Source: an uncultured Gemmatimonadales bacterium
GTDB lineage: Bacteria; Gemmatimonadota; Gemmatimonadetes; Longimicrobiales; Longimicrobiaceae
DNA length: 64,000 bases
Assembly: GCA_963716255.1 (NCBI GenBank)
Contig: OY970303.1
Span: 32,001-96,000, forward strand
Direction of reading: 5' to 3'
A program made the position numbers and the translations under genes. Under the pieces are notes generated by a model, which was given only the letters and a program-made list of their open reading frames with translations, was not told where the DNA came from and searched no databases. Shown piece by piece: positions 40,241 through 47,603 of the stretch (position 1 is the stretch's first letter; each line of letters starts with the position of its first letter).

Positions 40241-41455
40241 TCAGGCCCGGCCGGCGGAAAGCTCGGCCACCTGCGCGACGTCCTTGTCGCCGCGGCCGCT
40301 GAGGCACACCACCACCGGCCCGGAGTCGGCCCAGCGGGCACCGTCGCGCAGGAGATGGGCGATGGCGTGCGCCGTTTCCAGCGCGGGGATGATCCCCTCC
40401 AGCCGGGCCAGCCGCTCGAAGGCTTCCAGCGCCTCGGCGTCGGTGACGGACACGTACATGGCGCGGCCGGAGTCCTTGAGGTGCGAGTGCTCCGGCCCCA
40501 CGCCGGGGTAGTCCAGCCCGGCGGAGACCGAGTGCGCCTCGGTCACCTGCCCGGCCTCGTCCTGGAGCAGGTACGAGCGGCTCCCCTGGAAGACGCCGGG
40601 GCTCCCCTGGGTCAGGGTGGCGGCGTGGCGTCCGGTGTGCACCCCCTCCCCCGCCGCCTCCACCCCCACCAGCTCCACCTCCGCGTCCGCCACGAACGGG
40701 GCGAACATCCCGATGGCGTTGGAGCCCCCGCCCACGCAGGCGATCACCGCCGCGGGGAGGCGCCCCTCCACCTCCAGGACCTGCGCGCGGCTCTCGCGGC
40801 CGATGACCGACTGGAAGTCGCGCACCATGCGCGGAAACGGGTCGGGGCCCACGGCGGAGCCCAGCACGTAGTGCGTGTCGCGGACGTTGGCGACCCAGTC
40901 GCGCATGGCCTCGTTGCCGGCGTCCTTGAGGGTGCGTGTGCCGCTGCCGACGGGCCGCACCTCGGCGCCCAGCAGCCGCATGCGGTAGACGTTGAGCGCC
41001 TGCCGGCGGATGTCCTCCTCGCCCATGTAGACGATGCAGGGGAGCCCGAAGAGCGCGCAGGCGGTTGCGGTGGCGACGCCGTGCTGCCCCGCCCCGGTCT
41101 CGGCGATGATGCGCTGCTTCCCCATGCGCCGGGCGAGGAGCACCTGGCCCAGGGAGTTGTTGATCTTGTGCGCGCCGGTGTGGTTCAGGTCCTCGCGCTT
41201 CAGGTACACGGTCCCCACGCCCGCGGCCTCGCCCAGCCGCCGCGCCCGGTACAGCGGGGTGGGCCGGCCCACGTAGTCGCGCCAGAGCGCGTCCAGCTCC
41301 GCCCAGAACGCCGGGTCCGCCGAAGCCTGGGCGTAGGTGGCCGCCAGCTCGTCCAGCGCGGTGACGAGTGTCTCGGGGACGAAGCGCCCCCCGAACTTGC
41401 CGAAGCGGCCCGACACGTCGCCGGGGCTCGCCGCCGATGCTGCGGTGGAGGACAT
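40241..41455 (-). CDS. trpB: Tryptophan synthase beta chain
   Basis: [47 protein letters not shown]. Confidence 0.98.
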
Positions 41456-42127
41456 CTATGCCGTTTCCTGCTGGTCGTTCTGCGGCGCGCGGAGCGCGGC
41501 CGCGAAGGTACGGATCGCCGAGGGGTCCTTGATCCCGGGGGCGGACTCCACCCCGGAGCTCACGTCCACCACGTCGGGACGGAGGAGCGCGACCGCGCGG
41601 GCCACGTTGTCGGCCCGCATCCCGCCCGCCACCACCAGCGCCAGCCCGGCGGGGATCTCGCCGCGCACCGCGGCCACCTCCTCCCAGGGAAAGGCGGTGC
41701 CGGTGCCGCCGTGCGCCCTCGCCGAGAAGCCGTCCAGCAGCAGAGCATCGGCCACGCCGGCATAGCGCTCCACCCCGGCGCGCAGCTCCGCCGCGCCGCG
41801 GGGCCGCAGCGCCTTCCACACGGTCCAGCGGCCCTCCTCCCTGAGCTCGCGGAGCAGATCCGGGGGCTCGTCGCCGTGGAGCTGGAGCACGTGCAGCCCG
41901 GCCGCCTCCGCCGCCCGCCGCAGCTCGCCGCCGGCGGCGTCCACGAACACGCCCACGCGGCGCGCCGGGAGCCCGGCGAGGAGCGTGCCCGCGTCTTCCG
42001 CGGCGACGGTGCGCTTCCCCCCGGGGGCGAGCACCACCCCCAGGAACGCGGCGCCCGCCCCGGAGGCCGCCTCGGCGTCCGCGCGGCGGGTGATGCCGCA
42101 CACCTTGAGGGCGGGCGCGCCGCTCAC
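41456..42127 (-). CDS. trpF: Phosphoribosylanthranilate isomerase
   Basis: KVCGIT, VGVFV, QLHGDE, GGTG, DVSSGVE..PGIKD. Confidence 0.95.
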   Translation of the reverse strand: MSGAPALKVCGITRRADAEAASGAGAAFLGVVLAPGGKRTVAAEDAGTLLAGLPARRVGVFVDAAGGELRRAAEAAGLHVLQLHGDEPPDLLRELREEGRWTVWKALRPRGAAELRAGVERYAGVADALLLDGFSARAHGGTGTAFPWEEVAAVRGEIPAGLALVVAGGMRADNVARAVALLRPDVVDVSSGVESAPGIKDPSAIRTFAAALRAPQNDQQETA

Positions 42128-42921
42128 GGGCGGGCGGCGGGGTCGCGGGGGCGCCCGGCCAGGGCGGCGGCGGCGGCCCGCAGGTCGTCCTGCCGCATCA
42201 GCGACTCGCCCACCAGCACCGCGTCCACGCCGGCGGCGCCCAGCCGGTCCACGTCCGCGGCGGTGCGGATGCCGCTCTCGGCGACCAGCGTCACCGCGCC
42301 GGGGACGGACCCTGCGAGCCGGACCGAGAGGCCGAGGTCGGTGGTGAAGCTCGCCAGGTCGCGGTTGTTGACGCCCACCAGCCGCGCCCCGGCGGCGAGC
42401 GCGCGCTCCAGCTCCCCGGCGTCGTGCACCTCCACCAGCGCGTCCATTCCCTCCTCCGCCGCGAGCCCCAGCAGCTCGGCGAGGCGCGCGTCGTCCAGGA
42501 TGCGCGCGATGAGCAGGACGGCGTCCGCGCCTGCGGCGCGCGCCTCCCACAGCTGCACCGGGTCGATGAGGAAGTCCTTGCGGATGGCCGGGAGCCCCAC
42601 CTCCGCGCGGACGCGGCGAAGCGCGTCCAGGTCGCCCCCGAAGAATTCGCGGTCGGTGAGCACCGAGACCGCGGCCGCCCCGCCGCTCTCGTACGCGCGG
42701 GCGACCTCCACCGGATTCGCGCCGGGCCGGATCTCCCCGGCGGAGGGGGAGCGGCGCTTGACCTCGGCGAGGAGGCGGACCTCCCCGGGACGGCGGAGCG
42801 CCGCCGCGAAGCCGCGGGCGGGCGGCGCGTCGGCGGCGAGGGCGCGAAGCTCCGCGCGCCGCGGAGCAAGGTCCGCGACCTCGCCCCGCTTGGTGTCCAC
42901 GATGCGCTGCAGGATGCTCAA
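42124..42921 (-). CDS. trpC: Indole-3-glycerol phosphate synthase
   Basis: AEVKRRSPS, SVLTD, RKDF, GVNNRDL, AESGI, LVGESL; TTG start inferred. Confidence 0.96.
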   Translation of the reverse strand: MSILQRIVDTKRGEVADLAPRRAELRALAADAPPARGFAAALRRPGEVRLLAEVKRRSPSAGEIRPGANPVEVARAYESGGAAAVSVLTDREFFGGDLDALRRVRAEVGLPAIRKDFLIDPVQLWEARAAGADAVLLIARILDDARLAELLGLAAEEGMDALVEVHDAGELERALAAGARLVGVNNRDLASFTTDLGLSVRLAGSVPGAVTLVAESGIRTAADVDRLGAAGVDAVLVGESLMRQDDLRAAAAALAGRPRDPAARP

Positions 42922-43023
42922 GAACTCTTCAAAAGGGCGCCGCGGCGCGCTCGCGCGGAACACCGGAAAAGGGGCCCGCGGGCGCCGTTTTCGACCGGGA
43001 GGAAGGCCTTCCGCACGAGCGGC

Positions 43024-44002: not shown

Positions 44003-44163
44003 CGGCGGGCCGCTCCGGAGCCCGGACGATACTGCCGTCCGGTCTCCTACGCGGGCTCGGCGAGCCCCGGGAAACGGCCCCCGGGTCTCACCTCGCCGGA
44101 GTGAGCCTCGCCAAACTGCCGGCGAGTCTCCCTCCGTACATGATTTTGTGGGTACGGCAACGG
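44003..44163 (-). repeat. Intergenic repeat family A, copy 3
   Basis: Reverse complement of the tri-hairpin unit. Confidence 0.88.
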
Positions 44164-44189
44164 CTTCGTTCGCCGCGCACCCGAAAGCA

Positions 44190-44326: not shown

Positions 44327-44372
44327 CCTCCCCCTCTCCCCTCGTGGGAGAGGGGGCCGGGGGTGAGGGGGC
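44327..44372 (+). repeat. REP-like palindrome, family C
   Basis: CCCCTCTCCC..GGGAGAGGGG..GGGGTGAGGGG. Confidence 0.75.
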
Positions 44373-44401
44373 CCACCCCTGCGGACGCCAGCGCGGGCCC
44401 C

Positions 44402-44533
44402 GCGTGAGGGATTTCGGCCCGAAGGGGCGAGACCGCGCGGCTGTTTGCGCGGGCTCGACTCCGTTACGCACGGTCGTTTCGTGCGTTACGGAGCCGAAGC
44501 CCGACCCCGGCGCCAGCCGGGGGCACGCCCGAA
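44402..44533 (-). repeat. Intergenic repeat family B, copy 3
   Basis: Reverse complement of 23905-24036. Confidence 0.9.
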
Positions 44534-44597
44534 CCCCGCCGTCCAGCCCGCCTCAACCGGATCCGGATCACACCTCAGAGCAGTTCCGGCGCACGAG

Positions 44598-44918
44598 CTA
44601 CCCAGGGGATGCGAGCTTCAGCCCGACGATCCCGGCGACGATCAGGGCGATGCACACCAGCCGCATCGCACCGGCCGGCTCGCCCAGGAGCACCATCCCG
44701 AGAATCGCCGTCCCGACGGTCCCGATTCCCGTCCACACCGCGTACGCCGTGCCCAGGGGCAGCGTTCGCAGCGCGCTGCCGAGGAGCACCACGCTGGCGA
44801 CCAGCGCGGCCGCCGTGCCGGCGGACGGCCACGGGCGGGTGAATCCGTTCGTGTACTTCAGGCCGACGGCCCACCCGACCTCCAGCAGACCCGCGAGCAG
44901 CAGAAGACCCCACGCCAT
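44598..44918 (-). CDS. sugE: SMR-family guanidinium exporter Gdx/SugE
   Basis: [49 protein letters not shown]; riboswitch upstream. Confidence 0.95.
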
Positions 44919-44938
44919 GACTCGCCTCCAGATCCGGT

Positions 44939-44988
44939 GTGGGGCCGTCCCCACGTGCGTAGCGACCGAGCGAGGTCGTCCCCGCTCG
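44939..44988 (-). ncRNA. Guanidine-II (mini-ykkC) riboswitch upstream of sugE
   Basis: CGAGCGGGG-ACGA-CCTCGCTCG and GTGGGG-ACGG-CCCCAC hairpins with a 12-nt linker. Confidence 0.92.
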
Positions 44989-45016
44989 ACATGGACGTAC
45001 TACGCGGAACGACGGG

Positions 45017-46138
45017 TCACGGCGCGGCGGAGCGGATGGCCGAGTCGAGATCGGCCCACAGGTCTTCGGCGTCCTCGATCCCGACGCTGAGCCGCAGGAG
45101 CGAAGGCGGCAGGTGTTCCTGTCCCGGGATCGCGGCCCGCCGCTCCATCGTCGATTCCACGCCTCCGAGACTGGTGGCATGGCGGACGAGCCTCACGTTC
45201 CGGCAGACCGCGTCGGCCATCCCGGCCTCGCCGCGCAGGTCGAACGAGACGACGGTCCCGAAGCCCCGGAGCACGCGCCGGGCGATCGCGTGCGTCGGAT
45301 GCGAGGGCAGGCCCGGGTACCGGACGCGGGCGACCGACGGGTGCCTCTCGAGCCGCTCCGCGAGGCTGCCGGCCGTCTGCTGGGCCCGCTCCAGGCGAAT
45401 GGCCAGCGTCCGCGCGCCGCGGACGGCGAGAAAGGCTTCGAGCGTTCCCGGCGTGGCGCCGGTCAGCTCGCGAGACTGCCGGAGGGCGTGCCACAGGGCG
45501 TCGTCCCGGGTCGTGGCGATCCCCGCCAGCAGGTCGGAGTGGCCGCCGATGAGCTTGGTCGCCGACTGCAGGGACACCGTAGCGCCGAAGTCGAGCGGCC
45601 GCTGGTTCAGGGGCGTGGCGAAGGTGTTGTCCACCGCCACCATCGCTCCGGGCCTGCGCGGCGCCGCGCACACGGCCTCCAGGTCCGCCACGGTGAGCAG
45701 CGGGTTCGAGGGCGATTCGAGCCAGACCAGGTCGGCGGCGCCGCACGCACGGATCCAGGCGGCCGTGTCGTCCCCCGCCACCCGCCGCACCGACCAGCGT
45801 CCCTTTTCGGCGCCTGCGGCCGCCAGCCCCGCGACGCCCTGGTAGCAGTCGTCCGGGAGCGCCACGACGGCTCCCGCCGGGAGCTGGTCGAACACCGCGG
45901 CGATGGCGGCCATGCCGGAGGCGAACGCCACGGCCCTGCCGGACTCCAGCCCGCCGACGATGTCCTCGAGCGCTTCCCAGGTGGGAGTGCCGTCGTCGCG
46001 CGAGTAGCCGCGCCCGCCGCCGAGGATGAAGGTCGACGCGGGGACCAGCGGCGCGTTCAGCGGGGCCCCGGGCCCGGAGGGGCGCCCCGCCGAGACGAGC
46101 CACGATTCCGGTCTGATTCCGGACGGTTGCCTGTCCAT
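45017..46138 (-). CDS. Trans-sulfuration family PLP enzyme (cystathionine gamma-synthase/lyase-like)
   Basis: YSR, FASGMAAI, ESPSNPLL, VDNTFATP, SATKLIGGHSD (PLP Lys), SLGGVES, LRLSVGIED. Confidence 0.93.
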   Translation of the reverse strand: MDRQPSGIRPESWLVSAGRPSGPGAPLNAPLVPASTFILGGGRGYSRDDGTPTWEALEDIVGGLESGRAVAFASGMAAIAAVFDQLPAGAVVALPDDCYQGVAGLAAAGAEKGRWSVRRVAGDDTAAWIRACGAADLVWLESPSNPLLTVADLEAVCAAPRRPGAMVAVDNTFATPLNQRPLDFGATVSLQSATKLIGGHSDLLAGIATTRDDALWHALRQSRELTGATPGTLEAFLAVRGARTLAIRLERAQQTAGSLAERLERHPSVARVRYPGLPSHPTHAIARRVLRGFGTVVSFDLRGEAGMADAVCRNVRLVRHATSLGGVESTMERRAAIPGQEHLPPSLLRLSVGIEDAEDLWADLDSAIRSAAP

Positions 46139-46171
46139 GTTACGTATGCCTCCAGGCGAGACGAGTCGTCA

Positions 46172-46212
46172 GCTCCGACAGACCAGCGAGAAACAGCAAA
46201 GCCCCACGCCAC
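46172..46212 (-). pseudogene. Decayed 5' fragment of a second sugE copy
   Basis: GTG GCG TGG GGC (T) TTG CTG TTT CTC GCT GGT CTG TCG GAG = VAWG/LLFLAGLSE, compared with [13 protein letters not shown]. Confidence 0.75.
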
Positions 46213-46232
46213 GACTCGCCTGCGAGTCTGGT

Positions 46233-46282
46233 GTGGGGCCGTCCCCACCTGCGTACGGGAGAGACGGGGCCGTCCCCGCTCT
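46233..46282 (-). ncRNA. Second guanidine-II riboswitch, upstream of the PLP enzyme
   Basis: CGGGG-ACGG-CCCCG and GTGGGG-ACGG-CCCCAC hairpins. Confidence 0.88.
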
Positions 46283-46295
46283 GTATGTGGGCGCT

Positions 46296-46325
46296 AATCT
46301 ACACGGGCGAGAGCGTTTACGTCAA
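46296..46325 (-). promoter_or_regulatory. Putative promoter just upstream of the riboswitch
   Basis: TTGACG-18-TAGATT. Confidence 0.6.
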
Positions 46326-46362: not shown

Positions 46363-47418
46363 CTAGCGTCTCGTCGCCGCGCGCAGCGCCTCCAGCGCGG
46401 TCCACCCCGCCCCGCCGTCCAGCGCTTCCTCGGCCTTCCGGACCCCTTCCACCAGCGTTTCCGCCCGCCCCGCGACGTAGATCGCGGCGCCCGCGTTCAG
46501 CGCCACGGCCGCGCGGGCGGAGCCGCCCATCCGGCCGCGCAGGACGCGCTCGATGGTGCGGGCGTTCTCCTCGGGCTCGCTCCCGCCCAGCCCCTCCACG
46601 TCGGCGGGCTCCCAGCCCAGCTCGGCGCGCGGGTCCAGGGTGCTGCGCGTGAGCTCGCCGTCCTTGAGCTCGATCACCGCCGTCGGGCCGATGGGGCTCA
46701 GCTCGTCCATCCCCGGCTCGCCGTGCACCACCAGGGCGCGCTCGTGGCCCAGCTCGCGCAGACCGCCGGCGATCAGCTCCAGCAGCCCCGGGTCGGAGAC
46801 GCCCACCACCTGGCGGCGGGCCATGGCGGGGTTGGTGAGCGGGCCCAGCACGTTCATCAGCGTGGGCATCCCCAGCTCGCGGCGGACCGGGCCCACGTGG
46901 CGCATGGCGGGGTGGTGCAGCGGCGCGAACATGAAGACGATGCCTGCCTCCTCCAGCACGCGCGCTTCCTGCTCCGGCGTCAGGTCCAGCCGCACGCCCA
47001 GCGCCTCCAGCACGTCCGCGCTGCCGCAGCGCGAGGTGAAGCTGCGATTGCCGTGCTTGGCGACGCGCACCCCGGCCCCGGCGGCGACCAGCGCCGCGGC
47101 GGTGGAGATGTTGAAGGTGGTGAGCGCTCCGCCGCCGGTGCCGCAGGTGTCCACCAGCTCCGCCGTGGAGTCCACCGGCACAGCGACCATGGCGCGCCGC
47201 AGCGCGCGGACGCCGCCCGCGACCTCGTCCGGCACGGCGCCGCGGACGCGGATGGCCACCAGCAGCGCCGCCATCTGCACCGGGCTGGCGTTGCCGCCCA
47301 TCACCTCGCCGAAGGCGCGCTCGGCCTCGGCGGCTGTGAGGGGGCGCAGCGTGGCGGCGCGGACCAGCTCGCCCAGCGACATCCCGGCGGCCTCGCCGGA
47401 CAGCAGTCCGTCGCTCAT
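46363..47418 (-). CDS. trpD: Anthranilate phosphoribosyltransferase
   Basis: DTCGTGG, FNIST, AKHGNRS..GSAD, HPAM, GPLTNP, GMDEL. Confidence 0.96.
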   Translation of the reverse strand: MSDGLLSGEAAGMSLGELVRAATLRPLTAAEAERAFGEVMGGNASPVQMAALLVAIRVRGAVPDEVAGGVRALRRAMVAVPVDSTAELVDTCGTGGGALTTFNISTAAALVAAGAGVRVAKHGNRSFTSRCGSADVLEALGVRLDLTPEQEARVLEEAGIVFMFAPLHHPAMRHVGPVRRELGMPTLMNVLGPLTNPAMARRQVVGVSDPGLLELIAGGLRELGHERALVVHGEPGMDELSPIGPTAVIELKDGELTRSTLDPRAELGWEPADVEGLGGSEPEENARTIERVLRGRMGGSARAAVALNAGAAIYVAGRAETLVEGVRKAEEALDGGAGWTALEALRAATRR

Positions 47419-47527
47419 GCGGCTTCCCCCGCGCGGCGGGGGCGGGGCGGAGGGGTCCGGGCCGGTGGAACGGTGGACATCGGGCCGTCGGTGCGGGTGG
47501 AACGCGCTCTCGCGAAGCGGGGCCGGG

Positions 47528-47603
47528 ATCATACCCACGCCCGGCGGAGACTGTCAATCGCGCCGCGGCGCGCGCTTGACACCGGGTACCCGCCGGGTAG
47601 CTT
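47528..47603. promoter_or_regulatory. Divergent sigma70 promoters for trpD (-) and truA (+, apparently leaderless)
   Basis: Minus strand TTGACA-18-TATGAT; plus strand TTGACA-16-TAGCTT, 7 nt before GTG 47611. Confidence 0.6.

Follow-up and report, generated by a model that had tools for sequence, protein, structure and literature searches.

Two guanidine-II riboswitches precede an orphan trans-sulfuration-type PLP enzyme gene and gdx in an uncultured Longimicrobiaceae bacterium

We analyzed a 64,000-nucleotide stretch of DNA (hereafter, the window) from an uncultured Gemmatimonadota bacterium of family Longimicrobiaceae (assembly GCA_963716255.1, contig OY970303.1, positions 32,001 to 96,000). 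Its minus strand carries a unit in which one promoter is followed by two guanidine-II riboswitches, a pyridoxal phosphate (PLP) enzyme gene, and an exporter gene, arranged as follows:

46296..46325, minus strand: sigma-70-type promoter (−35 TTGACG, 18-nt spacing, −10 TAGATT; 46325-46296)
46233..46281, minus strand: guanidine-II aptamer 1 (P1 46281-46261, P2 46248-46233; ACGG/ACGG loops)
46191..46238, minus strand: OFF hairpin (46238-46202) with T-rich tail (46201-46191), a predicted terminator
46165..46212, minus strand: gdx stub, the first ~15 gdx codons, beginning with GTG and carrying a single additional base
46149..46153, minus strand: Shine-Dalgarno (SD) sequence GGAGG, the enzyme gene's own and outside the switch
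45017..46138, minus strand: PLP enzyme gene (373 aa; Cys/Met-metabolism PLP family PF01053)
44908..44987, minus strand: guanidine-II aptamer 2 with its OFF hairpin (ACGA/ACGG loops), without a −35 box of its own
44598..44918, minus strand: gdx/sugE guanidinium exporter gene, intact (106 aa)

Guanidine-II riboswitches are defined in the available text of PMC5558903 as a pair of hairpins, their ACGR loops closed by two G-C pairs, with a linker of 7-40 nt between them. Both switches in the window have this structure and exceeded the gathering score of Rfam family RF01068 (32 bits), with matches at 46281-46234 (40.3 bits) and, in the gdx leader, at 44987-44940 (42.1 bits). These were the only RF01068 matches in the genome among the 150 of 5055 first-look candidates scored, and no guanidine-I switch was found in this genome. 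The original prediction, made from the sequence alone, had named two guanidine-II switches with these very loops, and the annotation upheld it, along with its calls of a promoter upstream of the first switch (TTGACG-18-TAGATT; 1 observed versus 0.1 expected in shuffled sequence), a trans-sulfuration-type PLP gene (profile match, fold, and PLP-binding residues all fit PF01053), and sugE/gdx (NCBIfam SugE PRK11431, score 133.6 versus a cut-off of 126, with a guanidine switch upstream). A −35-like hexamer was also present ahead of 21 of 21 orthologous enzyme leaders. The switch–enzyme–gdx unit and lexA sit between trpD (46363-47538) and trpC/trpF/trpB/trpA (40241-42963; names except trpD taken from ORF sequences), and the trpD neighborhood was common to the window and genome G001 only, among seven orthologous loci checked. 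A second genomic gdx (L135 4963-5292; G000:C1 about 222980-223291), 70% identical and without a guanidine-II switch, sits downstream of a small membrane-protein gene.

The catalytic set of the enzyme is intact (PLP lysine K195; Y45, R47, Y99, D170, S323, and R349). It nevertheless scored below the cut-offs of all of the best 25 NCBIfam families listed, the best match being the cystathionine gamma-lyase family PRK07582 (346 bits versus a cut-off of 440). Other genes of the genome exceed the NCBIfam cut-offs for CGS and CBL, one each. The enzyme is not the housekeeping MetB/MetC, in agreement with the original prediction. The predicted structure (pLDDT 96) gave Foldseek matches generic to the family, with MetB, CGL, and CalE6 as the top folds (TM 0.91-0.94) at 34-40% identity to solved structures, and ESM Atlas matches comprised unnamed trans-sulfuration clusters only; nothing in the predicted fold points to the substrate. 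The enzyme resembles MetB/CGL/MGL and PRK07582 proteins in fold and catalytic residues, but differs from them in its sub-cut-off NCBIfam scores, in having housekeeping paralogues elsewhere in the genome, and in its own motifs (YSRDDGTPT, DCYQG, SRELTG, and HATSLG). The pocket departs from that of MetB in acidic residues inserted behind the YSR motif, in a Gln following Tyr99, and in the residues Glu224 and Thr322. The Glu before the SLG motif contributes to specificity in MetB/CGL, and the titles of structures 5TSU and 5EIG give E339V as a change of specificity. Here, Thr322 replaces the Glu of E. coli MetB. To judge from the roles that such residues play in the family, a pocket of acidic character may favor a cationic side chain, although Thr322 is common in the wider clade (68 of 81).

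By sequence, the enzyme is a member of a tight orphan subfamily spread across many phyla (Gemmatimonadota, Chloroflexota, Deinococcota, Acidobacteriota, and Pseudomonadota). The clade received an SH-aLRT support of 99, its members are 70-94% identical to the window enzyme, and the closest named orthologue, at 94% identity, comes from a Longimicrobiaceae MAG. Its distribution is patchy: it was carried by 22 of 401 Chloroflexota genomes and, in the Rubrivivax family, by 6 of 301, and a phylum-wide sample of 400 Pseudomonadota genomes contained no member beyond the centre genome, indicating that the gene is rare there. Cultured carriers belong to Herpetosiphon, Meiothermus, Rubrivivax, and Variovorax.

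Kinship with canavanine gamma-lyase, the family member to which the original prediction had pointed, was not supported by comparison with the rhizobial enzyme encoded on pRLG201 (L134). We identified this reference lyase by locus anatomy and its best PDB match, 5DX5, rather than by accession; the locus contains gdx, ABC, B3/4, homoserine and aldehyde dehydrogenase, and DapA genes, and both the anatomy and the 5DX5 match agree with the canavanine operon as given in the available text of PMC9533460. Its identity to the window enzyme was 31%, and a joint clade was rejected (AU test, p = 0.00024, on a quickly built 38-row tree in which the reference branch is long); orthology was therefore rejected. 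As in the canavanine operons of Pseudomonas canavaninivorans and Rhizobium, to judge from the same portion of PMC9533460, a PF01053 fold-type-I enzyme stands beside gdx in the window. Conversely, the window enzyme forms a separate clade, the ABC importer and the homoserine and aldehyde dehydrogenases of that operon are absent from the window ORFs, and the unit is predicted to be riboswitch-controlled, whereas the rhizobial locus gave no Rfam match. The missing partners likewise speak against kinship with canavanine gamma-lyase. No importer or homoserine-catabolism genes were seen near the enzyme, and an operon with the ABC importer and the two dehydrogenases was not found among the nearest neighbors at the best 80 loci either (121 of 436 called ORFs scanned). 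The canavanine operon also has a B3/4 gene, which finds a counterpart in one relative: in L095 (Anaerolineales), 1 of 80 loci, a CtdA-like B3/4 gene, 36% identical to the rhizobial one, adjoins the enzyme gene upstream. At L243 (1273-1920) and L244, the window's own genome encodes a standalone B3/4-domain protein with weak CtdA likeness and a single DUF1989 gene.

We then considered gene neighborhoods across the subfamily, using the best 80 of at least 412 GTDB loci. A guanidine-II switch was present at 7 of these 80, all from Gemmatimonadota closely related to the window, and an intact gdx likewise at 7. In 5 of the 7 gdx loci, the gene is part of an operon that comprises, beside a divergent MocR regulator, PaiB, an ABM-like protein, gdx, and the enzyme, and that gave no Rfam match. 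Among 17 loci with PaiB and/or ABM, most with a divergent MocR gene, gdx lay directly upstream of the enzyme gene in 8 and was absent from 9; these operons were mostly betaproteobacterial, and the gdx-bearing ones fell in two subclades of the enzyme tree. Within about 1.5 kb, gdx was found at 0 of 23 control loci of other ABM homologues and at 0 of 25 other PF01053 loci. The riboswitch-free MocR/PaiB (FMN_bind_2)/ABM-like/gdx/lyase operon (L060 120-4219; also L075, L097, L104, L130, L131, and L157) is a candidate protein-regulated unit for detoxification of a guanidino compound. Regulators of the MocR type generally use PLP to detect an amino compound, in keeping with an amino-acid substrate. 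Homologues are thus associated with gdx in this second lineage, as the original prediction required, but outside the two lineages neither a guanidine gene nor a guanidine switch stands close to most subfamily members, and most Chloroflexota, Acidobacteriota, and other members have unrelated neighbor genes. At 22 further Chloroflexota loci, gdx, B3/4, and PaiB were found at none, and none of the 19 scanned gave an Rfam match; the genomes behind five non-Gemmatimonadota loci gave no RF01068 match among 150 candidates scored in each. Five Meiothermus loci (L061 4310-6144; L105, L108, L111, and L120) have agmatine-deiminase-like (PAD_porph) and carbon-nitrogen hydrolase genes downstream. Carboxyguanidine deiminase is typically encoded by a gene pair; the window's genome has a single DUF1989 gene, not a pair of that type.

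The explanation that we favor, to which we give roughly even chances, is a guanidine-induced operon in which predicted anti-termination at the upstream switch would be followed by translational release at gdx, and in which the enzyme would act on an arginine-like amino acid. The enzyme would cleave a guanidino or guanidinooxy amino acid, and Gdx would export the leaving group. Taken singly, assignment of the substrate to the guanidino-type amino acids could fall either way, and canavanine itself is an unlikely substrate. It is possible, on the doubtful side, that a guanidine-II switch was converted to transcriptional control through gene duplication and loss of its SD, and at the same time that it governs a widespread PLP lyase which frees guanidine or hydroxyguanidine from an amino acid of the arginine type; if true, this reaction would represent a hitherto unrecognized natural origin of guanidine.

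Of the rivals, the one that survives best, itself a rather doubtful one, keeps the switch functional and has the enzyme cleave sulfur amino acids or other compounds without a guanidino group, such as S-substituted cysteine or homocysteine; guanidine would then be a mere cue for decaying plant or protein material. Guanidine has indeed been proposed as an indicator compound in the available part of PMC10018355, and the best NCBIfam match (PRK07582), the MetB, CGL, and CalE6 folds, and the unrelated neighbors of most Chloroflexota, Acidobacteriota, and other members are in line with such an enzyme. However, the switch-free link to gdx in the MocR-type operons points to an exported guanidine-like product, and the pocket departs from E. 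coli MetB in having Thr for Glu before SLG and Gln after the PLP-stacking Tyr.

A sub-case of the favored explanation, improbable in our estimate, is that canavanine gamma-lyase activity evolved a second time, independently, in this enzyme and serves detoxification rather than growth. The known enzyme is accompanied by gdx and a CtdA-like gene in the text available for PMC9533460, and both genes occur beside the subfamily; two carriers are Variovorax from legume roots, and hydroxyguanidine triggers a guanidine-I switch according to the accessible portion of PMC10018355. Against this stand the 31% identity, the rejected joint clade, the different pocket motifs, the single B3/4 neighbor in 80 loci, and the many carriers that are hot-spring or sludge bacteria by record titles and genera.

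Returning to the guanidine-induced operon, a feature overlooked in the original prediction is that both leaders form one duplicated unit. They are alike over 54 nt at 87% identity, and the similarity extends past the aptamer, about 45-50 nt into the gdx coding sequence; the upstream switch is likely a duplicate of the gdx leader. The gdx stub that remains is in a reading frame different from that of the enzyme, and in one relative (L047) it is still detectable as gdx codons 1-25. From the old gdx start to the enzyme ATG there are 74 nt in the window, out of frame, and 51-122 nt across 10 leaders, with all three frames represented; leader-peptide coupling was ruled out because the length and frame of the stub are not conserved. 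The double-leader layout also occurs in G001, G373, and the metagenome locus L138; a −35 box is missing from all four second leaders. In G384, gdx lies 3′ of the enzyme gene and the second switch was apparently deleted. Ancestral leaders (SD present, gdx) and derived leaders (SD lost, enzyme) thus coexist, even inside one operon, which offers a rare snapshot of riboswitch re-wiring.

The original prediction had also called the pairing of switch and enzyme unusual, and this pairing proved to be conserved in many related soil bacteria. Among 71 family genomes, 23 carry the enzyme gene; the upstream switch was intact in 15 of these carriers, decayed in 2, and absent in 5, and 1 reached a contig end. 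G010, an unpublished genome among the 71, has neither switch nor enzyme gene and enters only the denominators and one paralogue row. Because no more than 4 of the 23 have gdx within 1.5 kb downstream of the enzyme gene, retention of the leader is not explained by gdx alone. We collected 56 distinct leaders (Rfam matches in family genomes, 16 metagenome matches, and L063, with identical ones collapsed): 32 stood before an intact gdx, 22 before an intact or damaged enzyme gene, and 2 before neither. The Rfam matches L186, L187, L198, and L200 and the non-switch match L146 fell outside the leader pattern and were not counted; L187 (about 1372-1500, in G354) is a 36-bit guanidine-II match with no gdx start and no enzyme gene after it. 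Over 120 pairs of 16 leaders, identity was 0.958 in P2 plus hairpin. The enzyme gene's four-fold sites reached 0.692, and the part of the stub past the tail, eroded by deletions, 0.37 (ungapped). The excess of P2 and hairpin identity over four-fold sites indicates selection on the leader. The switch before the enzyme gene probably has one evolutionary origin, so the leader and genome counts are not independent. The enzyme gene is frameshifted, truncated, or a remnant behind leaders L140, L147/L172, L150, L151, and L171, suggesting that selection on it is weak; as these loci read, it is repeatedly lost with the switch left behind. In L151 (about 514-620), L171, and L150, the leader is followed only by the end or a decayed start of the enzyme gene. 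Overall, the upstream switch is probably functional. A passive remnant, with an enzyme gene that landed in a duplicated gdx and uses its promoter, is quite improbable: the visible stub, the enzyme's own SD, which is predicted to be no more accessible in the ON fold, and the 7 of 23 carriers with no or a decayed leader would agree with it, but the loops and hairpin are conserved well above synonymous sites (0.96 versus 0.69), the stub is eroded, and the leader persists in genomes without a downstream gdx.

If the upstream switch is functional, it would probably act on transcription, a further aspect that the original prediction had passed over. Folding predictions allow the 3′ strand of P2 in either leader to join a long alternative hairpin, and forcing P1 and P2 to form takes 5.2 and 6.9 kcal/mol in the two leaders. 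The gdx copy has the layout of a translational ON switch, with its OFF hairpin spanning the SD GGAGG (44929-44925) and the gdx start. In the upstream copy, the OFF hairpin overlaps the 3′ strand of P2, but the ancestral gdx SD is absent and the enzyme start lies well past the old start, outside such a layout. The SD was kept in 14 of 14 same-type gdx leaders versus 3 of 22 enzyme leaders. OFF-hairpin energy was equal in the two groups; of 11 tail positions, 6.0 were T in enzyme leaders versus 4.9 in gdx leaders, which are already T-rich there from Ile/Leu codons. The OFF hairpin was paired in 98.4% of cells across 21 leaders, and its covariation was not significant (13 and 21 sequences). Since the SD was lost while the hairpin and T-rich tail were kept, the switch was probably turned from translational to transcriptional, and, given a functional switch, it is somewhat probable that the upstream hairpin terminates transcription. 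A strict intrinsic-terminator scan reported no terminator at this hairpin, whose tail has 7 T of 11 in an interrupted run. Strong post-tRNA hairpins of this genome have similar interrupted tails, with at least 6 T of 11 in 8 of 24, as against 1% of 105 random hairpins. Direct occlusion of the enzyme SD was rejected, as the modeled ON fold predicts no gain in its accessibility. We propose that guanidine-stabilized P2 would prevent the upstream terminator hairpin, turning the operon on by anti-termination, and that, in a second step at gdx, guanidine would free the SD and start in the usual translational release.

A terminating switch would break the stated rule of its class, which is described as exclusively translational in the available text of PMC10351892 and predicted to be translational in that of PMC12186494. 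Direct SD sequestration was dispensable in one guanidine-II switch, again from the portion available of PMC10351892, and this, with the interrupted T tail and the negative strict scan, is what could be said for action through Rho access, mRNA decay, or long-range SD occlusion; such action is very unlikely, as the hairpin and tail alone are conserved and the spacer varies in length and sequence.

Compared with guanidine-II switches (mini-ykkC, RF01068) over gdx/sugE, both copies share the twin ACGR hairpins and the downstream one masks the gdx SD and start in the same way, whereas the upstream copy differs in standing before a PLP enzyme gene, in the loss of its SD, and in the terminator-like hairpin at its end. 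Operons combining a transcriptional guanidine-I switch with an internal translational guanidine-II switch are known (PMC5558903, available text) and provide two-level guanidine control, as proposed for the window operon; here, in contrast, a single guanidine-II leader, in two copies, would supply both levels. According to the available parts of PMC12623156 and PMC11018352, new enzymes have been uncovered time and again among genes controlled by guanidine riboswitches, and biological guanidine sources are largely unknown. In the literature searched, from which subscription papers were mostly outside the scope, we found no report of the pairing or of the subfamily; the gene lists of the original guanidine-II paper could contain an earlier mention. 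The enzyme subfamily can now be named for testing, with two separate links to guanidine. Downstream of gdx lie two families of interspersed repeats, probably MITE- or REP-like elements: one (44330-44545) occurs at ~824 distinct places in the genome with 88% mean identity, and the other (44041-44180) at ~183 with 80%.
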